DNA from: Oscillospiraceae bacterium
Lineage (GTDB): Bacteria > Bacillota > Clostridia > Oscillospirales > CAG-272
Direction: 5' to 3'
DNA length: 64,000 bases
Assembly (NCBI GenBank): GCA_015065335.1
Contig: SVQM01000001.1
Coordinates: 4-64,003 of the forward strand
Shown: in pieces, positions 205-44,656 of the stretch
How the letters are laid out: each line of letters begins with the position of its first letter
Position numbering within the stretch: position 1 is the first letter of the stretch
The notes under the pieces: generated by a model
Told to the model about the DNA's origin: nothing
The model's input: only the letters and a program-made list of their open reading frames with translations
Databases searched by the model: none
Translations under genes and position numbers: made by a program

Positions 205-1152
205 TTATTCATTCGTAGCTGTTCTCTTTGTAGGGTCACTGATGTGGGTGATATCGAAGGGTGTAGTCTGGTAGACGAAATAGTTCAGCCAGTTTGAGAA
301 CAGCAGATTTGCTGAAGAACGCCAGGATACAATAGGATCCTTTGTGTCGTCGTCATTGGGGTAATAATTCTTCGGTACTTCGATGGGGAGTCCTGCGTTC
401 TTGTCACGGAGATATTCCGATTCAAGAGTACGTGCATCGTATTCGGAGTGTCCCGTGATAAAGATGTGCTTACCGTGATCTGCGATGATGGCGTAAACAC
501 CTGCCTCCTCGGAGGATGCAAGGATCTTAAGCTCGGGCACCGCCTCAATATCCTCACGGCGACAGTAGGTGTGTCGTGAATGAGGTACCATGAAGGTGTC
601 GTCAAATCCTCGGAAAAGGATAGAACGCTTGTAGTCCACTGTATGGGGGAATACGCCGAACATCTTCTTCTCAAGGGGATATTTCTTCACGCCGTAGTGG
701 TAGTAAAGTCCTGCCTGAGCACCCCAGCAGATGTGAAAGGTGCTTGTCACGTGAGTCTTCGACCACTCCATGATCTTGCAAAGCTCATCCCAGTACGTGA
801 CCTCCTCGAACTCCATCTTCTCAACGGGCGCACCCGTGATGATGAGACCGTCAAATGAGCGGTCCTTGATGTCGTCAAAGGTCTTGTAGAAAGCGAGCAT
901 ATGCTCCTCAGAGGTGTTCTTGGCTTTGTGGGTGTCTGTCTTAATAAGCTCCATCTCAACCTGAAGAGGAGTGTTACCGAGAAGACGTGCAAGCTGAGTC
1001 TCAGTTACTATCTTCGTTGGCATGAGATTGAGGATAGCTATTTGCAGAGGACGAATGTCCTGCGTTACCGCACGGTCTTCGGGTATTACGAATATGTTTT
1101 CTTCCCTGAGAGTTTTTGTTGCGGGAAGCTCATTTGGTATACGGATCGGCAT
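205..1152 (-). CDS. metA: Homoserine O-acyltransferase (MetA family)
   Basis: 315-aa ORF. The N-terminus [21 protein letters not shown] and overall length are typical of MetA. RBS AAAGGAGGG lies upstream of the ATG. Confidence 0.9.
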
Positions 1153-2745: not shown

Positions 2746-3729
2746 ATGGCAAAAACATACGGACAAAGTCAGAAAACTCTCCTTATTGAGCAGATACTAA
2801 CGGAACGTACCGACGAGGATCACAAGCTTTCGGCAGAGGAGATCGGACGTATACTTGAGGAAGAATATGAAGGTCTCGGTGCAGAGAGAAAAGCGATTTA
2901 TCGCTATATAGATGCCTTGAAGGATGCTGATATCGATGTGTGCCATGAATCGGACGGGTATTTTATTGCAAGCCGTACATTTGAGCTTCCGGAGCTGAAG
3001 CTTCTCGTTGACGCCGTACAATCGTCAAAATTCATAACGGAGAAAAAGTCTGCTGAGCTTATAAAAAAGCTCGGAACTCTTGCAAGCACACATCAGGCGA
3101 AGCAGCTCAGACGACATGTATATGCTTTCGGTCGTATAAAATCCATGAATGAGAGTATTTACCGTATTATTGACAGGATCCATACGGCGCTTCTTGAAAA
3201 CAGACAGATCACGTTCCTTTATTTTGACTGGAATGAGAAGAAGGAGAAGATATACAGACATGACGGGGTGGAATATGCGGTAGATCCGCTTCTGTTGTGC
3301 TGGGATGACGAAAAGTATTATCTAATAGCAAGAGATGTGCGATCAGATAGGATAAAGCATTACCGTGTAGATAAAATGGAGAAGATATGTGTTACGGATG
3401 CAGTTGCAACATCACCGAAGCTCACCGCCGATGAGATCGCCGGATATAATGACCGTCACTTCGGAATGTTTGGCGGAGATGTTGTCAAGGTAGTTCTCCG
3501 TTGCAGAAATGAGCTTGCGGGAGTGATCGTCGACCGATTCGGTAAAGATATTCCGTTCCGTCCAACCTCCGACGGATATTTCACAGTTACGGTGAAGGTG
3601 GCGGAAAGTGTTCATTTCTTCACATGGATACTGAATTTCGGCGGTGGTGTATCAATAGCATCCCCCGAAAGCACCAAGGAGCGATTCAAGACCTTTGTTG
3701 CGGATACAAATAAATGGGTGAACGAATAA
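2746..3729 (+). CDS. HTH-WYL domain transcriptional regulator (YafY/BrxR/CapW-like architecture)
   Basis: N-terminal wHTH (LSAEEIGRILEEEY..IYRYIDAL), a central WYL-type core (ITFLYFDW...YYLIARD...IKHYRVDKM) and a C-terminal extension. Confidence 0.8.
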   Translation: MAKTYGQSQKTLLIEQILTERTDEDHKLSAEEIGRILEEEYEGLGAERKAIYRYIDALKDADIDVCHESDGYFIASRTFELPELKLLVDAVQSSKFITEKKSAELIKKLGTLASTHQAKQLRRHVYAFGRIKSMNESIYRIIDRIHTALLENRQITFLYFDWNEKKEKIYRHDGVEYAVDPLLLCWDDEKYYLIARDVRSDRIKHYRVDKMEKICVTDAVATSPKLTADEIAGYNDRHFGMFGGDVVKVVLRCRNELAGVIVDRFGKDIPFRPTSDGYFTVTVKVAESVHFFTWILNFGGGVSIASPESTKERFKTFVADTNKWVNE

Positions 3730-3776: not shown

Positions 3777-5924
3777 TTATTTTTCGTTTACGGCAGCTTC
3801 TATCTTTGTACCAAGCTCACGACGTATATCTTCAAGAACATATGCATCCTTTTCGAATGTTACCATATCTGTTGTGATCTTGTGATTGTACTCATCGGCA
3901 ACATCTTTTCCGAAGAGCTCCTCTGCAAGCACGAGATATTCTACATCCTCCATACCGTCACGCATGATCTCCGTGCGCAGGCAGGCGATGGGGCCGTCGA
4001 TCTTGTATATTCCGCCGTTGTATACGTAAAGTCCTGCACCTGCGGAGAGGGGACGCTGAGTCTGAGGTCTGTTTGAAACGCCCTGCCACTCGTTGGTAGC
4101 CCAGCACAGAACGCCTTCAATATCCTCATCATACTGCTGCCAGTAAGCGGTACGGTGAACCATTCCGCTGTGAGGAAGTGCGGTATTGTCGTCACCTGCA
4201 TAGTACCACCAGATCTCCTTGCCTGCTTCTCTTGACGCCTCAAGTCTTTCTCTGAGAGTACCGAAGGTGTCGGTTGCCTTCTGAGTGTACCAGATCTGAC
4301 CGTCAAATGTCATATCGGGTGTGGTAAACAGGCGAACGCTGGGGCAAAGAACGGTAGTGAATTTATCAACGATACCGTAGGTGTCCATATCAGCGTATGC
4401 GGGGTACTTGCCCTCGTTGTCAAAGCCTGTGTTTACGTCACTGAGGTCACCGGTTGCGAAATAGTTGACGTGGGTAGGAACGAGAACTCTTGCACCGGGG
4501 AAGTTGGCGTCAAGGAATCCCTTGGTGCTCTCAACGGCGTTCAGCTGATCGCCGAATCTGGGCTCATCGTTCATATAGAACAGTGCCTTAGATGCCCAGT
4601 CCTCGTTATCCTTGATCTTGTCGTACGCCGCAGAAACATATTCTGCACCTTCAGCATCAAGTCTTCCTTCGTTTCCGTATCTGTCACCTGCATATCCTCC
4701 ATATACAAGGAATGTGGTAACTCTGGGATCAGACATATACTTGTCTGCTCTCTCATCGGTAGGGTCAAAGGGCATACACCAGGGAGTGATCCTGTTTTCA
4801 AGGAAATACTCGTAGTATCTCTCGTAAAGCTGTCCCTCATGTTCCTCTGTTAACTTGTTGTGAGAAGTATAAATAGCATATGCGCTCATTCCGTAAGCAG
4901 TCTTGATGGACGGCTCTTCGGGAATCTCAAAATTCCACACGTAGGTGTAAACGTATCCGCGTTTTATAGTCTGACCTGACTCGTTCTTCACGTCAACACG
5001 TGCACGGTACATTCCGGGAACGGTATCAAAATCGGTCTTTACCTTGAGGAAGAGTCCTTGAGTCTCGGACGCCTTGATCTCAAAGCCGTTCTTTACCTCA
5101 ATGGGAGGAAGCCTATCGGGATACTTATCACCTGTATCCACCTCAAAGTAATCCTCAAAGAAAAGCTCGGTGGGGAGTGTATTACCTGCCTTATCCTTGA
5201 ACTGAGTTACAGATGCACTGAGTCCCTTGTGACCTGTGGACGATGTGAGATTTACATGACATCCCTCATACTCATTCTTCGCCATGTACATATCGAATGC
5301 GTGCTTATCATTGGGTACAGCATCAGTCTTGTATTCCTTGATGGCACTGTGATTGAACCAGAGCTTGAGAGTACTGTCCTCAGCAGGTGCATCCACCTTT
5401 GAGAGATCGTATTTCCATGACACGAAACCGCACTCAACATCCCATTTTGCGATGTACTGAAGAATACGTGATGCATCTGCAAGATTTACCTTGTCGTCGA
5501 CAGTAACATCTGCTGCATTGAGATTCATAGAGACATTCCACTTTGCGATATGCTTGAGCATTGAAGCAACATCTGTAAGATTTATCTTAGTGTCGCAGTT
5601 AACATCACCGTAAATGACGATCTTTCGTGAATCCTCACCGAAGCAGATGGTGTAATCTGTTCCTATGAGCGCAGTACCTTCTATCGGTTCGCCTTTTGCA
5701 TTTTTCAGAGTATGACCGTCAGCGAATTCACTGAGAAGATCTGCAGCAGTAGTACCCTGAGCCATTCCCTTATAGAAGCCCTTAGCTTCGTCGTATACGG
5801 AAATCACGTTATCCTTTTGAGTAAAAGGTGCGGGATCTTGTGACATTGCAGTGTTTGCAAATGTCATTGTACCTGTTACTGCGGCTGTGGCAAGAACGGT
5901 AGAGAGGAGTTTTTTTATTTTCAT
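3777..5924 (-). CDS. Secreted dockerin-containing protein with a DUF4091-like (GH123-like) C-terminal domain
   Basis: Signal peptide MKIKKLLSTVLATAAVTGTMTFANTA. Dockerin duplicate GDVNCDTKINLTDVASMLKHIAKWNV / VTVDDKVNLADASRILQYIAKWDV. The C-terminal WWYYAG...RTAYWQQY...GVLCWATNEW pattern is recalled from DUF4091. Confidence 0.65.
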   Translation of the reverse strand: MKIKKLLSTVLATAAVTGTMTFANTAMSQDPAPFTQKDNVISVYDEAKGFYKGMAQGTTAADLLSEFADGHTLKNAKGEPIEGTALIGTDYTICFGEDSRKIVIYGDVNCDTKINLTDVASMLKHIAKWNVSMNLNAADVTVDDKVNLADASRILQYIAKWDVECGFVSWKYDLSKVDAPAEDSTLKLWFNHSAIKEYKTDAVPNDKHAFDMYMAKNEYEGCHVNLTSSTGHKGLSASVTQFKDKAGNTLPTELFFEDYFEVDTGDKYPDRLPPIEVKNGFEIKASETQGLFLKVKTDFDTVPGMYRARVDVKNESGQTIKRGYVYTYVWNFEIPEEPSIKTAYGMSAYAIYTSHNKLTEEHEGQLYERYYEYFLENRITPWCMPFDPTDERADKYMSDPRVTTFLVYGGYAGDRYGNEGRLDAEGAEYVSAAYDKIKDNEDWASKALFYMNDEPRFGDQLNAVESTKGFLDANFPGARVLVPTHVNYFATGDLSDVNTGFDNEGKYPAYADMDTYGIVDKFTTVLCPSVRLFTTPDMTFDGQIWYTQKATDTFGTLRERLEASREAGKEIWWYYAGDDNTALPHSGMVHRTAYWQQYDEDIEGVLCWATNEWQGVSNRPQTQRPLSAGAGLYVYNGGIYKIDGPIACLRTEIMRDGMEDVEYLVLAEELFGKDVADEYNHKITTDMVTFEKDAYVLEDIRRELGTKIEAAVNEK

Positions 5925-5949: not shown

Positions 5950-7065
5950 TTATTTAATCATGTGCGGATTACTTGTGTTACTGTCGTCGGAGTCATGCTT
6001 GTTGAGCAGTGAAGCCAAACTGAGAAGCTCCTTGCGGGATGAGACACCGAGCTTTGAATATATGTTTTTATTGTGGTATTTCAGGGTATTTTCTTTGATA
6101 CCAAGCTTTGCAAGGATATCCTTTGATGATCTTCCGTCAGCATATAGCTCGAATACCGTATGCTCGGTAGGAGTAAGAGTTTTGAGATTTTCGGTAAATT
6201 CAAAATAGCGTTGCTTATCATCATGTGTCGTATCGACTTCGTTCGGTTCGATTACAGTGAGGGTATTGTTTGTACAAGATTCGTTATCATTGACCGTGCT
6301 GCACGAGAGCATGCTTTTTTCGGCATATTTTATTACAACATAGATACCAATGAGGAAAAGCTCACTCATTATGTAAGAGATGGAGAGCATTTCAAAACGG
6401 ATATCTACAAGCTGTTCAAGAAGCCAGACGCATATGTTTACAAAAACTGCACTGAGGATAACCCACGCATGGATAGTAGCGGTGAGACGTTTTTTTGCAA
6501 GTGCAACCAAAACCACACCTATCATTGAACCAAAATACGATATCAAATAATAAAGATACAGAGAATGCCACGGTCCGTATTCTTTCACGAGGAAAGAAGC
6601 ACCGTTTTCCTGTATTAGATAAACGTCTTTATAGTAGATATCAAGTATTCCCGGACTTGCCGCAATGAGGAATACGGCAATGCTTATGACGGAAAGCACA
6701 GCGATCAGCCATTTTTTTGCAGGGTATTTACATACGTGGAGTATTACGAAAAACATCGACAGAGGCAAGAAAACAGAGCCGAGATACGAAATACGGTTTG
6801 CCCATAGTGCCATCTGCAGAGTTGTTGAAACAGACAGGATGAAATATCCGGTATTTACAACAAGAACTGACGAGAACAGTACGATGAACCATGGCTCAGT
6901 GTTCCTGAGTGTACGTATACATCCAATAAGTAAAAAAAGGCTGCATATGGTAACGATCGCATAGACTGAAGACAGATCAAAAACACTGTTTTTTTGGGGA
7001 ACACAGGATGTGACAAAAAACAGAGCCGATGAAAGTATTGAAACAAGGGATAATCTTTTACTCAT
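5950..7065 (-). CDS. Membrane-embedded (about 7-8 TM) LuxR-type one-component regulator
   Basis: Start reset to MSKRLSLVS (AGGAGGAGCCGATCT-ATG). The hydrophobic N-terminal 300 aa carry multiple TM helices. C-terminal GerE/LuxR HTH: LTPTEHTVFELYADGRSSKDILAKLGIKENTLKYHNKNIYSKLGVSSRKELL. Confidence 0.75.
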   Translation of the reverse strand: MSKRLSLVSILSSALFFVTSCVPQKNSVFDLSSVYAIVTICSLFLLIGCIRTLRNTEPWFIVLFSSVLVVNTGYFILSVSTTLQMALWANRISYLGSVFLPLSMFFVILHVCKYPAKKWLIAVLSVISIAVFLIAASPGILDIYYKDVYLIQENGASFLVKEYGPWHSLYLYYLISYFGSMIGVVLVALAKKRLTATIHAWVILSAVFVNICVWLLEQLVDIRFEMLSISYIMSELFLIGIYVVIKYAEKSMLSCSTVNDNESCTNNTLTVIEPNEVDTTHDDKQRYFEFTENLKTLTPTEHTVFELYADGRSSKDILAKLGIKENTLKYHNKNIYSKLGVSSRKELLSLASLLNKHDSDDSNTSNPHMIK

Positions 7066-7107: not shown

Positions 7108-7158
7108 GTGGGATTTTCCACCATGTTTCCCACCCGAAATAATGCAATATTGGGTGGC
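7108..7158 (-). promoter_or_regulatory. Leader element with CCACCC/GGGTGG and GTGGGA/TCCCAC overlapping inverted repeats, containing TTCGGGTGGGAAA
   Basis: Minus strand reads GCCACCCAATATTGCATTATTTCGGGTGGGAAACATGGTGGAAAATCCCAC. It lies between the predicted promoter and the LuxR start, and the 13-mer is identical to 35301-35313. Confidence 0.45.
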
Positions 7159-7183: not shown

Positions 7184-7212
7184 ATTATAACATAAGTCTT
7201 GGGAAAGGTCAA
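7184..7212 (-). promoter_or_regulatory. Sigma-70-type promoter for the LuxR/DUF4091 operon
   Basis: Minus strand TTGACC-17 nt-TATAAT. Implies a leader of about 110 nt. Confidence 0.5.
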
Positions 7213-32233: not shown

Positions 32234-33898
32234 TCATGTATTCGGATATCCCTTTCTATCCTGTTGCTGTTTTAATGCAGCAAAACGAAGTAGCTGTTTT
32301 CTTGACGATACACCCAGTTTACCATAGATATTTTTATTGTGGTACTTCATGGTATTTTCCTGAATTCCGAGAATCGTGGTGATTTCCTTCACCGTCTTGC
32401 CCTCAAGATACAGTTCATAAATACGAGATTCGGTAGGCGTTAATGTCGTTAGATTACAAATAAAATAATCGTAATCCTCCAGTACGATCTTCTTCTTTTG
32501 GTCCTCGGTGAGTTGCAATATCTCATTTTGAGCCAGCTCGTATTCTTCAAGTGCCTTTTCGTAAGCGGCCTTTGTTCGCTGTGCTTCTTCTTCTGCAGCC
32601 AGTTTGGCTGCTTGCAGGTTTATTAACTGTTCTTCATAGGCAACGTCTCTCTGCGCAAGATATTCAAACAGGTCATCGATCTCACGTATCTTTAGCTGCT
32701 TTCCTTGATCTCCGCTGTATTTTACCTGATCTATCTTTTTTAGGATAGGAGAGACGTATTTTTTGCTCATAAACAGGCAATAGGTAAGGGCAACCAAAAC
32801 GACAAACAGTATAATACCCGCTGTTTTCATCTGCCCTTTGAAGATCTGTGCATTGTACTGACTTTCGGTCATCATGAGTGCCACGGTAAAGGTGTTGTTA
32901 CCGAGCTTGATGCTTTGTGTCTTACCGATACATTTTTCCTCTCCAAAGTCAAATACAGTAGCATCGTTACGCTTTGATACTTTCACGAAATCTGAACCGG
33001 ATGTGTTATATCGATTGGAATTAAACTGCCCTGAGAAGCCTTCCTGATCTTCGTCAAGAAGCGCTCCGACAAGCTGGCCCAGCTTGCTGTCGTTTGCCTT
33101 CTTCGACAACTGAAAATACAAGTTATTTATTTCAAAACCGCATACACCGATGATGTGATCTCGCGAATCACGGATCGGTGTATATATGTATCTCGCCCTT
33201 TCCCATGTATCCGGAATATCTACGGTAGGACTCAGAATGTAATAAGTACCTTTTGAGAATTCTGATTTACAAGAATCAAAAAAGTCTGTGCGCATCTCGT
33301 TGTTCCAACCACTGTGAAAGGTCAGATTACCTTCTTTGGCCGTGGAAAAGGAGCCTCGGTACAAAGCAATATCATTGTTTACGGTGCTTTCGGAATACAG
33401 ATTGATGTATTTGAGATAGATTCCGTTATAAAGCTGTGGTTCGGACTGACCGTTGACAGTCGTATCCAGAATATAAAAGGCACCACTGGTTGGGGCGAGC
33501 TGCATATTCAGATAAACGGTGTTGTAGAGTTCACATTGTAATTCGGAAAGCGCATCAGCATTGTTTTTAAGATCTTCAAATGCAATGCTGTTATCAACCA
33601 AAAAGCTTTCCACTGTTGCCTCGATCTGATCGGAGAAGGAAAGAGCGTGTGCAGCAGCTTCGTTATAGTCATGTTCAATGTAGTCTGTGTAAGACAAAAG
33701 CTGAGTATCCATTACCTCCATGATCCTTGAATTCGTTGGATTCATGATTCCGAACAGATTCAATAGAAGTAAGATCAAGGACAGCACTAAAGCAATAGCT
33801 GAGATAATGTACATAACAAAGCGCCTGCGCATGGAAACACCTTCGGCTTTGATCTGTTTGAGTATGCTTGTGATACTGATTTTTTGGAGTCGTTTCAT
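32234..33898 (-). CDS. Membrane LuxR-type sensor-regulator (TM, about 300-aa extracytoplasmic domain, TM, coiled coil, GerE HTH)
   Basis: TM1 YIISAIALVLSLILLLLNLFGI and TM2 TAGIILFVVLVALTYCLFM. Coiled coil EEQLINLQAAKLAAEEEAQRTKAAYEKALEEYE. HTH LTPTESRIYELYLEGKTVKEITTILGIQENTMKYHNKNIYGKLGVSSRKQLL. Alternative start at 33832 (GAAGGTG RBS). Confidence 0.75.
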   Translation of the reverse strand: MKRLQKISITSILKQIKAEGVSMRRRFVMYIISAIALVLSLILLLLNLFGIMNPTNSRIMEVMDTQLLSYTDYIEHDYNEAAAHALSFSDQIEATVESFLVDNSIAFEDLKNNADALSELQCELYNTVYLNMQLAPTSGAFYILDTTVNGQSEPQLYNGIYLKYINLYSESTVNNDIALYRGSFSTAKEGNLTFHSGWNNEMRTDFFDSCKSEFSKGTYYILSPTVDIPDTWERARYIYTPIRDSRDHIIGVCGFEINNLYFQLSKKANDSKLGQLVGALLDEDQEGFSGQFNSNRYNTSGSDFVKVSKRNDATVFDFGEEKCIGKTQSIKLGNNTFTVALMMTESQYNAQIFKGQMKTAGIILFVVLVALTYCLFMSKKYVSPILKKIDQVKYSGDQGKQLKIREIDDLFEYLAQRDVAYEEQLINLQAAKLAAEEEAQRTKAAYEKALEEYELAQNEILQLTEDQKKKIVLEDYDYFICNLTTLTPTESRIYELYLEGKTVKEITTILGIQENTMKYHNKNIYGKLGVSSRKQLLRFAALKQQQDRKGYPNT

Positions 33899-33907
33899 GT
33901 CTGCCCA

Positions 33908-35278
33908 TCACGCTCCTTGCTCGGCTGACAGAGCCATGAGCTCCATGAGTGAAGTTTCGACAAGCTCGTTCAGTACATCGGTGGGATCGTCACCGCCCGT
34001 TACACGTTTTATGTACTGATTGTGTGCGGACGACAATACTGACTTGACGTTTTTTTCAAAGTTAAGTTGAATATCCGAAGCACCGTCGTAAAGGGGAAGC
34101 GCATAGAAGGAATAGTTTTCCAACATAGTATCCACAGCTTTATAAACACTTCGGTAACTTTTCTTTTCGATCGTATTAATGTCTTTGAATAAAGTATCAA
34201 AAGCTTCGGAAGTAACGGGAAGATATCCGGAGTTTGTTACGAAGTCCAAATTGTGCTCTTTTTCGGTCAGCCATTTAGCGAATATGTATGCAGCCTGATT
34301 CTTGCGATCGTCACTGTTCTTTACGGCAAAGAGACCACCACCGCGATAGATCACTCCTGCAGTATTATCCGTGAAAGTAGGATATGGCAGTGCGATCGAT
34401 TCAATTGCTTCGGTGGTGTTGTCCGAGTAGATCACCTCGTCAGGCTGATACAGCACATCCGCAGTGGAGCCGGTGTTTGCAATGATCTCGGCGGTCTTCC
34501 AACGTGCTGCAGCATAACCGTCCTCAAGGCAAATACCGCCGTAGATGGCAGTCTCAGCCAAAGGTACCCAAATCGTCCTGAAGGCGTCATCGTCAAGACG
34601 CAGACGTCCGTTGCGAATAAGCTCGCTGCCGTGAGCCTTCATGCCTACATAGGCATAATTATAGTAGTCGTTGATCTGCATAAAGCTTTGACCGTCTGAC
34701 CAGTCGTAGTACTTACGTGCTGCGTCAAATACACCGTCAAAGGTGTTAAGACCATCAACAGTAACACCGGTAGCAGTGCTGAAACGGTCAAACAGGGTTT
34801 TGTTAAGATAGAAGGCTTCTGCAGATTTTGCTATTGGAAGCATCAGTAAGTCTTCGCCGAAATATCCCTCGGACAGAAAATCCTTACGGAAAACAGATAA
34901 TTCAGTATCTGAGAAACAGTCGTCCCAAGACAGGAGCCGATCCTTGCCGATCAGCTCAACGACACGGGGATAGGCGGTAAAGAGATCAGGCATATTCTCA
35001 GCTCCCGGCTCTCCGTTTGCAGAGGCGGACAATGCATTATCGATAGCGGAGGAGCTGGTAACTGATTCTACGTTGATTGTGATGCCTTTTTCTTTACCGA
35101 TAGTTTGGTTGAATTCGATTATAACATCGTTTAACGGAGATTTGGTTTGACTGCCGTAAACGTGCCACATAGTCAGTGTGACCGGATCTTTAGGACTGAG
35201 CTCCGCACTGCTTTGTCCACATCCGGAAAAACAGCTTATAAATATTATAAAACATAATAAAAATGCGATTTTTTTCAT
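33908..35278 (-). CDS. Extracellular solute-binding lipoprotein (ABC SBP family 1-like), with no cognate permease adjacent
   Basis: Start reset to MKKIAFLLCFIIFISCFSGCGQ (lipobox FSGC). The remainder looks like a sugar-type SBP. Its stop lies 9 nt before the LuxR-sensor start. Confidence 0.7.
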   Translation of the reverse strand: MKKIAFLLCFIIFISCFSGCGQSSAELSPKDPVTLTMWHVYGSQTKSPLNDVIIEFNQTIGKEKGITINVESVTSSSAIDNALSASANGEPGAENMPDLFTAYPRVVELIGKDRLLSWDDCFSDTELSVFRKDFLSEGYFGEDLLMLPIAKSAEAFYLNKTLFDRFSTATGVTVDGLNTFDGVFDAARKYYDWSDGQSFMQINDYYNYAYVGMKAHGSELIRNGRLRLDDDAFRTIWVPLAETAIYGGICLEDGYAAARWKTAEIIANTGSTADVLYQPDEVIYSDNTTEAIESIALPYPTFTDNTAGVIYRGGGLFAVKNSDDRKNQAAYIFAKWLTEKEHNLDFVTNSGYLPVTSEAFDTLFKDINTIEKKSYRSVYKAVDTMLENYSFYALPLYDGASDIQLNFEKNVKSVLSSAHNQYIKRVTGGDDPTDVLNELVETSLMELMALSAEQGA

Positions 35279-35282
35279 AGTG

Positions 35283-35373
35283 CCACCTTCAGGTGTGGTT
35301 TTCCCACCCGAATTCCCACCCCTTTGAAAATTATTTTTGTTTATCCTACCCTTTTGACCTTTTTGGGTGGGGA
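35283..35373 (-). promoter_or_regulatory. Leader element containing TTCGGGTGGGAAA and CCCACCC/GGGTGGG repeats, ending at the RBS
   Basis: Minus strand reads CCCCACCCAAAAAGG...AAAGGGGTGGGAATTCGGGTGGGAAAACCACACCTGAAGGTGGCACT-ATG. Confidence 0.45.
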
Positions 35374-35390
35374 CAAAAAAGTTGAGATCA

Positions 35391-35419
35391 TTATAATTAT
35401 ATATGAGCATACTTGAAAT
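35391..35419 (-). promoter_or_regulatory. Candidate promoter of the SBP/LuxR-sensor operon
   Basis: Minus strand TTTCAA-17 nt-TATAAT (two tandem TATAAT hexamers). Implies a leader of about 105 nt. Confidence 0.4.
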
Positions 35420-35612
35420 GTTATCGCATGGGTATATATCATGTCTTTGTTGCGGGATTGATAAAGAGATATGACAATGCGCCAACGAAACAGTGAGTAC
35501 GTCTTATAAATTGTTTTTGTTTATTGTATCACAAAATATCGACTCAGTCAAATATTATGTCGCCATTGTGAGAAAAAAGAGTTAGAAAATACTCCCAAAG
35601 GAGGAAGAAAAA

Positions 35613-38600
35613 ATGAAACGTAAGCTTTCAAAACGAATTCTGAGCACCCTGCTCGCAGTGGTGATGCTCATCAGCACGTTGCCGATGATCGTGACGTCAG
35701 AGGAGGAAAAACCCACGGTGGACAGCGAGGGCTATACCCTCATCTGGTCCTACGATCAGCTGCGAAGCGTGGCAAAAACCGCCAAGTACAATCAGCGATA
35801 TCGCCTGGCGACGGATATTTATCAGAACGATGGCGAAAACGATCTGGTAATCCGGGTCAGTGACGGCGCCAATTTTTCGCTGGATCTGAACGGTCACGTT
35901 CTGTCCCGCAAGACAAGGTCGCTGGATTCGGTGATGTTTGCCGTGAAAGAACGGTCAACGCTGAACATCTACGACTCCTCACCCGACCAAACCGGTACCT
36001 GCATCTATGATATCACCGGTGCTCCGGGTATCTGCAGCGTGATCGAAAACAGCGGAGGCAACGTGATCATCGACGGTGGCAGCTACATCATCAAAGGGGA
36101 AAGCATCTCGGACTTTGCCGCCGTGTTATGTAGTTTTTCGGGAGAGATCACAGTGTACGGCGGCTACTTCGACTCCACCATGGCAAAAGACGGCAGAGCA
36201 GTGCAGCTGTATTATAACAACTATATTAATGAAATGCCCACCTGCGTCATCTACGGCGGTCGGTTCTACAGCCAACACACTTGTATCTATGTGGATTGCC
36301 TTGGCAACTATGCCAATGTTGGTGTGTATTACCCCTATGCGTTCGTGTTGGGGGGCGAATTTTACACCAGAAGGGAAAACGGCGATAAATACGACGGTAA
36401 TTTCGCCTATTGCAACAACTTCTGGGGACGGGTCATCGTGGCGAACGGCGTGGTGCCCTCTAAATCCTTGAATATGAGGGATCAGCGGTATGCAACGGGC
36501 GCCACGAAAGAATATTTGGTGCTGAAGGATGAGCCGGGTAACGGCTGGACATACGCCTTCGTGACACCTCCGCCCCGTATCGTCAGTCGGCAGATGTCCT
36601 TTGAAGACAGACTGTATTCTCTGTGTTGGCGTGACTACCTAAAAACCGCAAAAGAGAATGAAAGCTACAATATTTGGACTACGTGTCAGGAGCAGATTGA
36701 GGAGGAGCTGGCCAAGATCGACGGCTTTACGGTGAGTAAATACGATACCGAGCCTACTGTTCTCGAAATCGAGGACAAGGGGGAGATCGAATCCGTCAAC
36801 TGGTACTTCTCCGATTCCCCCGACTCCCGCTGGTCGGAGCTTGGCGATTACCGTGACAGCACCGGTCCCGTTACCTTGAACCGTCCCGATAAAGAGACCA
36901 CCTTGTATTACCGTGTGGTGGTCAAACACAAAGACGGCACCGAATATGAGGACGTGATCTGCGTGTACTACCAGGAACCTATAAGGAACCTTGGCGGTAA
37001 GGCGGTGATCCGTATGAACAGTGCCGCCTATGGCAATACGGCACATGTGTTGGTGATGAATGCCCCCGAGTGGCAGGACGCCTCCACCTATACATACGAG
37101 TGGAAGATCAACGGTCGGGTGGTTGGTACCGAACAGCAATTTAAGATCGAAAAGGAATCCTACGTTGGCAAGAGCTTGACCTGCACCGTGAAAAGCACCG
37201 CCTATGAAGGATCGCTTGTTACCCCCGAGGTTACGGTTGGAAAGGGACAAAACACAGATTGGCCCATCTTCCCCACAGCAAGTTTTAACGGCGGCATCTA
37301 TTTGAGCAATGTGAAAACCAATCAGGAATACCTGTTTTCCACCAAGCCCTCGGTGGACGTGCTGACTGAGGAGGATTGGAAAAAAGCACATGCGATCAAC
37401 GCCTTCCAAGCCGGTTTCTCTCTGGATTATCTGGGACTGGAGAGTGAGGTGGGCAAGACCATCTACATATACACCCGTTTCAAAGAAACGGATACGAAAT
37501 TTGCAGGACAAAAGGTGCTGTGCACCCGACTGACGCTTGCCGACGTGGTGCCGCTCAAGACCCTGCGGTTTGAGGATGCAGTGAACGACACGCTGTACAT
37601 TCCTTTTACGGGAGCAGGCGACACGGTGAAAGTGACCTATGAGCTTGATCCCATCAACGCCAACAAGTGGAGCTCCTTCACATGGCGCACGTCCTATCCC
37701 GTTTCGCTGGTGGAGCCCACCGGCTCGGTCAACACGAGCAACAATACGGGCAGTATAACGCTGAAGCTGCTCACCACCGGATCCACCACACTCACGGCTT
37801 CCTACTTCACCTACACCGAAGAGGTGTACAAACGGGTGACCATTATGGTGTATGACCCGGCAAATCCTACCGTTGGATCAGGTAACGTCCTGTATCCCAT
37901 GCCCGACCAAACGGTGATGACCGACACGGTATATGTACCGCAAATGCCGGAGTTCTACCCCGTACCGCCTACTGATATGGAGTTTTCTTGGTCATTTATC
38001 CGCCGCACGGGACTGAAAGAAGAGCGCATCACTGACTGTGAGGTGGCGTCCATTGACCCCGCCACCGGTGCCATCACCGCCAAAACTCCCGGTCAGGTGG
38101 ACGTGGCCTTGATCGGACCCGGCGGTACTGCTGTGGACACCTTCCGCCTGACCGTAATTGAAAACGACGGCACGGTGGCGGTAGAGTCGGTGCACCTCAG
38201 TGAGGAGACGCTGTCGATGGACGTGAAAACACGTGTGACGCTCACCGCCATGATCTATCCCGTAAACGCCAACGACCAAACGGTCGTGTGGGCGTCCTCC
38301 GATCCGTCGGTGGTAACAGTTGACGAGAACGGTATCGTGACCGCAGTGCAGGCCGGTACGGCACAGATTACCGCACAAGTCGGCGGTATTACGGCGACGT
38401 GCACCGTAGCAGTCGAGAAAGACATCTTCTCGGGTGCACTCAGTATGCCCGGTGATGCTACCGGTGATGGCAAGGTGAACCTTGCGGATGCGTCCCTCAT
38501 ACTCAAGTATATCGCAAAGTGGGATGTAACAATGTACACCGATGCTGCTGACGTTACAGGCGACGGTAAAGTCAACCTTGCGGATGTATCACTACTCCTC

Positions 38601-38636
38601 AAGTACATTGCAAAGTGGGATGTAGAATTAAAGTAA
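35613..38636 (+). CDS. Large secreted protein: unknown Gly/Tyr-rich N-terminal region, Big_2 Ig-like domains, C-terminal dockerin
   Basis: Signal/anchor LSTLLAVVMLISTLPMIV. Big_2-like VESVHLSEETLSMDVKTRVTLTAMIYPVNANDQTVVWASSDPSVVTVDENGIVTAVQAGTAQITA. Dockerin GDATGDGKVNLADASLILKYIAKWDV / DVTGDGKVNLADVSLLLKYIAKWDV. Confidence 0.8.
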   Translation: MKRKLSKRILSTLLAVVMLISTLPMIVTSEEEKPTVDSEGYTLIWSYDQLRSVAKTAKYNQRYRLATDIYQNDGENDLVIRVSDGANFSLDLNGHVLSRKTRSLDSVMFAVKERSTLNIYDSSPDQTGTCIYDITGAPGICSVIENSGGNVIIDGGSYIIKGESISDFAAVLCSFSGEITVYGGYFDSTMAKDGRAVQLYYNNYINEMPTCVIYGGRFYSQHTCIYVDCLGNYANVGVYYPYAFVLGGEFYTRRENGDKYDGNFAYCNNFWGRVIVANGVVPSKSLNMRDQRYATGATKEYLVLKDEPGNGWTYAFVTPPPRIVSRQMSFEDRLYSLCWRDYLKTAKENESYNIWTTCQEQIEEELAKIDGFTVSKYDTEPTVLEIEDKGEIESVNWYFSDSPDSRWSELGDYRDSTGPVTLNRPDKETTLYYRVVVKHKDGTEYEDVICVYYQEPIRNLGGKAVIRMNSAAYGNTAHVLVMNAPEWQDASTYTYEWKINGRVVGTEQQFKIEKESYVGKSLTCTVKSTAYEGSLVTPEVTVGKGQNTDWPIFPTASFNGGIYLSNVKTNQEYLFSTKPSVDVLTEEDWKKAHAINAFQAGFSLDYLGLESEVGKTIYIYTRFKETDTKFAGQKVLCTRLTLADVVPLKTLRFEDAVNDTLYIPFTGAGDTVKVTYELDPINANKWSSFTWRTSYPVSLVEPTGSVNTSNNTGSITLKLLTTGSTTLTASYFTYTEEVYKRVTIMVYDPANPTVGSGNVLYPMPDQTVMTDTVYVPQMPEFYPVPPTDMEFSWSFIRRTGLKEERITDCEVASIDPATGAITAKTPGQVDVALIGPGGTAVDTFRLTVIENDGTVAVESVHLSEETLSMDVKTRVTLTAMIYPVNANDQTVVWASSDPSVVTVDENGIVTAVQAGTAQITAQVGGITATCTVAVEKDIFSGALSMPGDATGDGKVNLADASLILKYIAKWDVTMYTDAADVTGDGKVNLADVSLLLKYIAKWDVELK

Positions 38637-44126: not shown

Positions 44127-44185
44127 TCTGTTGTTAAGGGATATAATTTGAACACAGATAAATATGGAACGGATGGTGGGAAAAC

Positions 44186-44656
44186 GTGACGGAAGAATTG
44201 TTGCAGGCATGTAAGTCGTACATAGAAAACGGCGGTGCGTTGAGTGAAGACAATGTGATACCGCATTTCAAAATGATGGATATCAGCGTAAGCGAAGCGG
44301 ATGCTTATCTGCGGTATAACAGGGATCTTTCCTTTAACGAGCGTCTGTTTCTCCTGATCGACCGAACAGGTCAGAAGGACAGTGATGTATATAAAAAGGC
44401 ACATATCGACAGACGGCTTTTTTCAAAGATTCGTTCCAATAAGAATTACATTCCATGCAAAAAGACGGTGATCGCACTTTGTTTGGCACTGGAGCTTAAC
44501 CGTGAAGATGCAGATGCACTTCTGATTTCTGCGGGATACAGTTTATCCCGTGCAGATGATTATGACCTGGCAATAGCATTTTGCATTGATAAAAAGGTGT
44601 TTGATTTCTTTGATGTTAATGAGGTGATGGTGCACTTCGGATTTGAAGTTTTCTGA
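44186..44656 (+). CDS. HTH-domain protein (XRE-like C-terminal half)
   Basis: GTG start 5 nt after GGTGGG. The segment VYKKAHIDRRLFSKIRSNKNYIPCKKTVIALCLALELNREDADALLISAGYSL resembles an XRE-type HTH. Confidence 0.55.
   Translation: MTEELLQACKSYIENGGALSEDNVIPHFKMMDISVSEADAYLRYNRDLSFNERLFLLIDRTGQKDSDVYKKAHIDRRLFSKIRSNKNYIPCKKTVIALCLALELNREDADALLISAGYSLSRADDYDLAIAFCIDKKVFDFFDVNEVMVHFGFEVF

Follow-up and report, generated by a model that had tools for sequence, protein, structure and literature searches.

BguR and SusR are membrane-spanning one-component regulators of glycan utilization in Bacteroidota (bioRxiv 10.64898/2026.01.10.698779). Here we describe two regulators of Oscillospirales (Firmicutes), together with the arrays of short G-rich boxes that precede their operons, in a 64,000-nucleotide (nt) stretch of an Oscillospiraceae bacterium genome (assembly GCA_015065335.1, contig SVQM01000001.1), referred to below as the window. 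As in BguR and SusR, a membrane sensor is fused to a cytoplasmic GerE domain with neither kinase nor receiver (bioRxiv 10.64898/2026.01.10.698779), a conserved intergenic motif lies beside the regulator gene, and there is a linkage to carbohydrate-active proteins. BguR has a single transmembrane (TM) helix and a periplasmic β-propeller/Y_Y_Y sensor and belongs to the polysaccharide utilization loci of Bacteroidota (bioRxiv 10.64898/2026.01.10.698779), whereas the regulators described here carry HisKA_7TM, or an unclassified extracytoplasmic domain together with a solute-binding protein (SBP). In concept, BguR and other one-component GerE regulators that span the membrane are the nearest counterparts of these proteins; literature searches by domain combination, motif strings and topic returned no description of the regulators or of their sites. 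Comparison of related loci leads us to propose that the boxes are probably DNA operator sites of the two adjacent membrane-anchored LuxR/GerE-type one-component regulators.

Both regulator genes are read from the minus strand, and the boxes lie in the leaders of their operons. Leader A precedes the operon for a seven-transmembrane (7TM) regulator and a GH123–dockerin protein, and leader B the operon for an SBP and the second regulator. The two regulators are:

5950–7065, minus strand: 371 aa; 7TM domain (HisKA_7TM) at the N terminus and LuxR/GerE helix-turn-helix (HTH) domain at the C terminus; here 7TM-LuxR
32234–33898, minus strand: 554 aa; extracytoplasmic domain flanked by TM segments, plus a LuxR/GerE HTH

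Leader A contains the following elements; here and below, all promoters are consensus predictions:

7184–7212, minus strand: sense promoter TTGACC-17-TATAAT with TG, 11/12 consensus matches; near-identical in a related locus (L094)
7152–7158, minus strand: box1, inverted, GCCACCC, without the GAC/-35 extension seen elsewhere
7126–7138, minus strand: box2, the 13-mer TTCGGGTGGGAAA, with core GGGTGGG at 7129–7135; 23 nt from the box1 start
7117–7123, minus strand: degenerate tandem box TGGTGGA, 12 nt from box2, start to start; one mismatch to the tandem pattern
7108–7113, minus strand: partial inverted box TCCCAC behind the tandem pair; similar trailing inverted boxes in L001, L012 and L066

Leader B and the promoter that faces it contain:

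35523–35551, minus strand: P1, upstream sense promoter TTGACT-17-TACAAT with TG, 10/12 consensus matches; kept in orthologous operons
35370–35397, plus strand: P(div), GGGACA-16-TATAAT (-35 at 35370–35375, -10 at 35392–35397); box1 overlaps the -35
35365–35374, minus strand: box1, inverted, GTCCCCACCC (plus strand GGGTGGGGAC)
35345–35351, minus strand: box2, GGGTAGG, 20 nt from box1
35315–35321, minus strand: box3, GGGTGGG, 50 nt from box1
35300–35312, minus strand: box4, the 13-mer TTCGGGTGGGAAA, with core at 35303–35309; 12 nt from box3; GGGAATTYGGGTRGGAAAA in orthologs
35292–35298, minus strand: partial inverted box CCACACC, taken for an anti-Shine–Dalgarno (anti-SD) sequence in the initial annotation; not conserved

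Along the minus strand, leader A reads TTGACC-17-TATAAT, 25 nt, GCCACCC, 16 nt and CGGGTGGGAAACATGGTGGAAAATCCCAC, followed further on by AGGAGG and the ATG at 7065; it consists of box1 and a tandem pair, at offsets 23 and 35. Leader B reads GTCCCCACCC-13 nt-GGGTAGG-23 nt-GGGGTGGGAATTCGGGTGGGAAAACCACACC-TGAAGGTGG-ATG(35278) and has the canonical four-box layout, with offsets of 20, 50 and 62. The initial annotation of the window had reported an identical 13-mer in both leaders, with CCACCC upstream and GGTGG downstream of it, and both leaders do have all of these. There are two exact matches of TTCGGGTGGGAAA in the window, one per leader and both on the minus strand, at 7126–7138 and at 35300–35312, the second of which had been placed one position off (35301–35313). 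The leader A promoter proposed there, TTGACC-17-TATAAT at 7212 to 7184 with 11/12 matches plus TG, also stands. For leader B, the promoter ATAACA-17-TATAAT (35424 to 35396) had been chosen, which reaches merely 10/12 matches without TG; the conserved, TG-extended P1 sits farther upstream, and the TATAAT is better read as the -10 of the plus-strand P(div). Leader B, put at ~110 nt, is probably ~240 nt long instead.

An exact 13-mer repeat somewhere in 64 kb is not rare per se, and a 13-mer common to two ~110-nt leaders in the same orientation is expected ~2e-4 times (110 x 110 / 4^13). The sequence GGGTGGGAA without mismatch occurs three times in the 64 kb, every time inside leader A or B, and the tandem-box pattern GKGTGGGAANNNGKGTGGRAA matches the leaders with 0 and 1 mismatch, where 0.16 matches with three or fewer mismatches are expected. 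Given this confinement to the leaders and the tandem-pattern statistics, the sharing of the 13-mer is real and not due to chance. The 13-mer is one box of a conserved array with the consensus AAAA-GKGTGGG-AAA. There are only two box clusters in the window, at leaders A and B, beside its two HTHs of this type, and a tblastn search of the window found no further copy of this HTH beyond the two regulators. Elsewhere, TGGTGGGAAAACGTGACGGAA at 44174–44194 (plus strand) fits the tandem-box pattern weakly, with three mismatches, just before and across the GTG from which an open reading frame (ORF) starts at 44186; this is probably a fortuitous match or a ribosome-binding-site (RBS)-like sequence.

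The array is retained across related loci. From the more than 500 loci of 7TM-LuxR relatives found in species-representative genomes, we fetched 80, with 44–52% protein identity to 7TM-LuxR; box1 plus at least one direct box lies upstream of the regulator gene in 68 of them. Each array comprises one inverted box1, GTC(C/G/A)CCAC(A/C)C, and then one to five direct boxes, AAAA-G(T/G)GTGGG-AAA. The usual positions are +21/22 for box2 and +51–53 and +63–65 for a tandem pair, a tandem spacing of 12 nt being the norm; some loci have extra boxes at +73–76 and +85/86 or alternatives at +31/+43, and in others box2 lies at +12 and forms a short palindrome. Tandem box pairs number 51 in the 330-nt regions preceding the regulator genes, compared with 2 in the remaining ~575 kb of fetched DNA. 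P1, P(div) and the four boxes are also present in the orthologous SBP-LuxR operons, whose regulators are 89, 86, 80, 73 and 69% identical, and the leaders there retain GGGAATT(C/T)GGGT(G/A)GGAAAA, which contains the 13-mer. Because the boxes precede two sensor architectures that share only the HTH, it is the type of HTH that the motif tracks, not that of the sensor. The leaders of strain-level contigs were identical and hence gave no comparative information, and a metagenome scan returned only five short contigs.

The boxes are spaced in steps of the DNA helix. Their offsets from box1 cluster at 12, 21/22, 31, 41–43, 51–53, 63–65, 73–76 and 85/86, and the box-to-box distances have a best period of 10.1–10.5 bp (resultant R ~0.75), in phase at 10.5. 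The direct boxes lie about 1, 2, 3, 4, 5, 6, 7 or 8 helical turns from the inverted box, and the architectures of the arrays differ from each other by ~10-bp steps. In L094, from a 56% homolog, the middle boxes are inverted, and the array has three inverted and two direct boxes. Besides this array, the same locus has three further tandem boxes (CCGGTGGGAAT, CCGGTGGAAAA and GGATGGGAAAATC; L094:735–775) right before the ATG of its divergent gene.

The DNA-binding domains vary together with the boxes. Pfam assigns GerE to the two regulators with E = 2.9e-14 and 1.3e-13, and the nearest solved structures to the HTH are those of GerE (1fse) and NarL (1je8). Over 84 aa, the HTH regions share 55% identity, and their recognition-helix regions are near-identical (ENTLKYHNKNIYSKLGVSSRK and ENTMKYHNKNIYGKLGVSSRK), with an identical KYHNKNIY core. 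We grouped the leaders by majority box type, as GTATGGG (n = 9), GTGTGGG (n = 44) and GGGTGGG (n = 17), and aligned the HTH residue by residue with GerE, a response regulator and EL222. E(S/T)T replaces ENT at 8 of 9 GTATGGG loci and at 1 of 61 elsewhere (Fisher p ~1e-8, a value that ignores kinship). Likewise, H(N/S)R replaces HNK at all 9 GTATGGG loci, compared with 2 of 44 GTGTGGG loci (Fisher p ~1e-8) and 6 of 17 GGGTGGG loci (p ~4e-3), kinship again being ignored. Across the loci, recognition-helix residues co-vary with the box sequence. From a manual alignment to the NarL sequence, we take the covarying positions to be NarL S185 and K192; in the NarL–DNA structure, K192 contacts bases.

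In most leaders the arrays also stand in a fixed register to promoter hexamers. On the opposite strand to the regulator gene, GGGACA or GGGACT comes after the box1 core, and TATAAT comes next, at a spacing of 17 bp in 51 of 70 leaders and of 16 bp in 9; this divergent -10 is a perfect 6/6 match in 52 of the 70. By consensus, this is a conserved σ70-type divergent promoter whose weak -35 is overlapped by box1, which puts a box at approximately -37, a class II activator position. The sense promoter, TTGAC(T/C/G)-17-TATAAT, is strong, often has TG and was found in 61 of the 70 leaders, 25–105 nt or 140–186 nt upstream of box1 apart from two outliers at 264 and 272 nt. At some loci the RBS lies only ~10 nt past the last box (L047, L076, L064 and L027). 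With the sense promoter upstream of box1 and the RBS behind the last box, the boxes are always within the transcribed leader, and the sense promoter and P(div) face each other. A SigI-type promoter on the plus strand (C-rich -35 plus CGAA) was considered and rejected; its spacing and CGAA are unconserved, and the σ70-type GGGACA-17-TATAAT is conserved.

P(div) of leader B points toward a large dockerin-protein gene, its likely target. The neighbouring genes are:

3777–5924, minus strand: GH123 catalytic domain and dockerin, downstream of 7TM-LuxR in its operon
33908–35278, minus strand: SBP, first gene of operon B
35613–38636, plus strand: 1007-aa protein with Big_2 and dockerin domains, divergent from operon B

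Transcription from P(div) is predicted to start near 35404 (plus strand), ~36–37 bp downstream of the box1 core (35365–35371), and we found no stronger promoter and no terminator between P(div) and the dockerin gene. Among related loci, the genes served by P(div) are heterogeneous and include those for large secreted or surface proteins (SLH, fn3, BspA-LRR and dockerin) and for small zinc-ribbon proteins. No divergent promoter was found at leader A, where the corresponding sequence is GGGTGGCATTT.

Several observations count against operator sites and have to be weighed. With its divergent promoter missing, leader A matches the general model only in part, and its 61-nt core folds into two hairpins with z = -3.85. 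In L081, box1 has changed to CCTACCC and is again perfectly complementary to the box2 GGGTAGG, and inverted boxes necessarily form RNA hairpins too. The covariation statistics ignore shared ancestry, and the covariation involves several lineages; the association of boxes with regulators was counted in the 64-kb window and the fetched loci. Binding is predicted, and the regulatory sign is inferred and not derivable from sequence. The folding data bear above all on a cis-acting leader RNA, in which the C-rich box1 would have the G-rich boxes, or the GGTGG-type RBS, as alternative pairing partners and would control translation or elongation, with or without a ligand or protein. Such an RNA agrees with the presence of the boxes in the transcribed leader at every locus, with the two-hairpin fold of leader A, with the joint change of box1 and box2 in L081 and with the covariation of ACAC/GTGT and ATAC/GTAT versions, yet we regard it as unlikely. 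The leader A hairpins are expected anyway, because inverted protein sites would form them, and leader B folds unremarkably (z = -0.8 to -1.4). The complementarity of box1 to box2, compared with that to box3 or box4, is better at 3 loci, equal at 38 and worse at 4. The 54 x 8 box1:box2 cells contain no G·U wobble at all, their 81 deviations being mismatches throughout, 31 of them in the 7-bp core; pairing specific to box1 and box2 did not emerge from this comparison. The K position (GGG/GTG) is often uncompensated in box1 (L002, L073, L080 and the L013 group), and the distal GTC of box1 is conserved as the opposite-strand -35 GAC rather than as a pairing partner. Furthermore, the 10.3-bp periodicity has no rationale in RNA, the orientation of boxes flips in L094, and no terminator-like site was found on the sense (minus) strand of either window leader. 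Rfam searches of the window and 19 related loci at gathering score yielded only tRNAs and no leader match, and in E-value mode the leaders gave chance miRNA matches and nothing meaningful. Nor are the two leader A hairpins necessarily mutually exclusive, as had been suggested; the minimum-energy fold pairs CCACCC/GGGUGG and CAUGGUGG/CCCACUAUG side by side. The supposed anti-SD CCACACC of leader B is likewise unconserved, reading CCCGTAC in L081 (regulator 89% identical) and varying in L096–L099. Phasing, the overlap with the -35, the box1 pairing statistics and the covariation with the recognition helix point to protein-bound DNA over an RNA switch. The initial annotation had proposed either a LuxR operator or an RNA switch; the operator gains from HTH association, helical phase, P(div) overlap and covariation, and the switch finds no such backing. 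The box hairpins could play an additional role at the RNA level.

Alternatively, the boxes could be sites of a different protein, such as another transcription factor or a nucleoid protein, and be linked to the LuxR genes by chance. LuxR binding to the boxes is a prediction, and G-rich asymmetric boxes are atypical when set against the well-studied palindromic lux boxes. We nevertheless judge this explanation somewhat less probable even than the leader RNA: tandem pairs are nearly exclusive to the regions upstream of genes for this HTH (51 versus 2), the boxes precede two sensor architectures with only the HTH in common, and recognition-helix residues co-vary with the box variant. A G-quadruplex in DNA or RNA that modulates expression is highly improbable. 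Leader B does contain four G-tracts, GGGG-T-GGG-AATTC-GGG-T-GGG, and its 35303–35322 segment (minus strand) fits the G3+N1-7 rule; however, most boxes in the family are GTGTGGG, with a single GGG each and two or three boxes per array, the four G-tracts are unconserved, and leader A has only two G3 tracts. Last, chance similarity between two purine-rich leaders deserves almost no credence. The 13-mer alone, with two or fewer mismatches, is unenriched in the window (2 matches, 1.44 expected), but both matches are exact and both lie in the relevant leaders, and the array architecture is kept in dozens of species; in our reading, the comparative sequence data have already refuted this explanation.

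On the operator reading, the phased boxes would be occupied by several protomers of the membrane-anchored regulators, arrayed along one face of the helix. In leader B and most relatives, the proximal inverted box would then most likely work like a class II activator site: it would recruit RNA polymerase to P(div), and the adjacent gene, which encodes a secreted dockerin protein, would be turned on. The regulator's own operon transcribes the entire array as part of its leader, and binding should therefore feed back on the regulator. An occupied array, and P(div) firing against P1, would reduce SBP-LuxR transcription, and the feedback would most likely be negative, through a roadblock and through collision between the face-to-face promoters. 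For leader A, which has no divergent promoter and is down to three boxes, autoregulation of the LuxR–GH123 operon alone is expected. Cross-talk between the regulators and leaders is possible given the near-identical recognition-helix regions and the common GGGTGGG box type. Motif, architecture, HTH association, phasing, promoter geometry and covariation were computed; from these we infer binding, regulatory sign and interference. A bidirectional switch, in which a constitutive-looking P1 faces a LuxR-dependent P(div) and the regulator, bound to the phased boxes in its own leader DNA, fires P(div) to turn on an adjacent gene for a secreted or surface protein while throttling its own synthesis by roadblock, collision or antisense pairing, is a tentative extension that we hold to be possible, though rather doubtful.

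In part of the family, the region between the face-to-face promoters contains a conserved noncoding element of ~110–140 nt, found in 29–32 of the 80 loci and in L096, L097 and L098. Examples, and a decayed relic in the window, are:

L012:3691–3859, minus strand: structured element
L019:3669–3837, minus strand: structured element
L096:~960–1105, plus strand: structured element
~35405–35520 of the window, no strand assigned: decayed relic with a ~39-nt deletion; helices H1, H3 and H4 broken

On the P(div) strand, the element reads TTGCAAG..GAAGGAGGGTATA..CTTGC, then CCNNN..NNNGG, GGGTACCC, a variable hairpin and GTCTCTG-(GTTG-CGC-CAAC)-AAAA-CAGAGAC-CGCCCY. The fold is a three-way junction in which the loops AAGGAGGGTATA and GCGCCAAC are invariant. 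Pairing in three helices reaches 90.5%, compared with 39–51% in slid controls, and compensatory changes occur in 35 cells, a number reached in 0 of 500 shuffles; helix H4 has 2–8 compensatory changes per pair. The P(div) strand is the more stable in 18 of 27 cases, and G·U counts are 19 versus 14, a slight lean to the P(div) strand. The element has its start at the +1 predicted for P(div) and its end ~10 nt from the one predicted for P1; with these limits it coincides with the overlap of the two convergent transcripts. No Rfam counterpart was found, either in 19 related loci at gathering score or in E-value mode. The element may be a new noncoding RNA or a sense/antisense leader pair; in about one-third of the related loci and in the operon B orthologs, it may form a sense/antisense kissing-loop RNA pair. 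In the window relic, GTTTCGTTGGCGC and TATACCC survive relative to L096, L097 and L098 (regulators 86, 80 and 73% identical), and nhmmer detects the element weakly at 35462–35492 (plus strand; E = 0.27); the promoters and boxes on either side of it are retained. Two other interpretations of the region were rejected. The conserved CCCTCCTT upstream of box1, considered as an RBS of the divergent gene, is a loop of the noncoding element and is accompanied by no conserved ORF, and the apparent 'flipped loop' GCGCCAAC / GTTGGCGC resolves into a mini-hairpin, GTTG-NNN-CAAC, whose triloop is CGC or GCG.

Pfam and the hydrophobic segments in the sequences show that both regulators consist of a transmembrane sensor and a DNA-binding domain, without a kinase or receiver. 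Pfam detected in them no Autoind_bind, no Y_Y_Y or propeller domain and no MalT-like STAND ATPase. The 7TM core of 7TM-LuxR is conserved among 35 homologs. Its N terminus is lipobox-like, with the consensus LSGC and with Cys21 in at least 90% of these 35, the window protein having VTSC (residues 1–25). This suggests an extracellular N terminus with a lipid anchor, then seven TM helices, with the HTH in the cytoplasm. Database searches gave more than 3,600 relatives of 7TM-LuxR, all from Clostridia, Oscillospiraceae or Ruminococcus metagenome bins, and 697 relatives of the 554-aa regulator, described as Ruminococcaceae metagenome-assembled genomes. The occurrence of two dockerin-bearing proteins (3777–5924 and 35613–38636) in 64 kb points to a cellulosome-type Ruminococcaceae organism. 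A gene for a WYL/WCX-domain protein (2746–3729, plus strand) adjoins the GH123 gene and is unrelated to the boxes.

Both kinds of regulator, 7TM-LuxR and SBP-linked LuxR, abound in Oscillospirales of the gut and rumen, and the cis-regulatory layout described here occurs in hundreds of Clostridia from these habitats. The box consensus and the fixed promoter geometry provide a handle for regulon prediction and for the design of binding and reporter experiments, as well as on how fibre-degrading bacteria turn on dockerin, SLH and other surface proteins upon extracellular cues. The face-to-face promoters with their structured element could be a new Firmicutes case of transcriptional interference or antisense RNA.

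Among well-studied activators, MalT recognizes the box GGGGAKGAGG at defined positions in its promoters. The MalT promoters of E. coli and Klebsiella resemble the region of leader B in combining a LuxR-type HTH with asymmetric G-rich boxes, a distal direct-repeat pair (here a tandem pair 12 bp apart) and a proximal box over a weak -35, at approximately -37/-38. MalT itself is a soluble STAND ATPase, whereas the proteins described here are 7TM or TM-sensor membrane proteins with a different box sequence. In addition, unlike in MalT promoters, the proximal box has the opposite orientation to the distal boxes, and the array lies in the regulator's own leader and faces a convergent promoter.

GerE (RWWTRGGYNNYY), NarL (TACYYMT) and CsgD (CGGGKGAKNKA) bind short asymmetric sites of varied number, spacing and orientation, and activate or repress according to position. 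They share the HTH fold with the present regulators, but they are soluble or phosphorylated response regulators, and their box consensus differs. ToxR, TcpP and CadC are one-component membrane-anchored proteins that bind direct repeats near the -35. These proteobacterial regulators have an N-terminal OmpR-type winged helix and a single TM segment, in contrast to the C-terminal GerE-type HTH found here. LuxR and TraR bind the lux box, a 20-bp palindrome centred near -42.5 that overlaps the -35. Quorum-sensing LuxR/TraR proteins have the GerE-type HTH in common with our regulators, whereas the boxes described here are asymmetric 7–13-mers in arrays. With no autoinducer domain and no 20-bp palindrome, this is not a quorum-sensing LuxR/lux-box system.

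Finally, prgQ/prgX of pCF10 and pR/pL of phage 186 are face-to-face promoter switches with overlapping structured transcripts. In those systems and here, two strong consensus promoters converge across 50–190 bp, and in many relatives of the present loci the overlap is a structured element. The regulator is unrelated to PrgX or CI, and the interference or antisense action that we put forward is proposed from sequence. LuxR-family operator arrays are ordinary in principle; what is new is an uncharacterized, very widespread family of regulators with a distinctive face-to-face promoter cassette.

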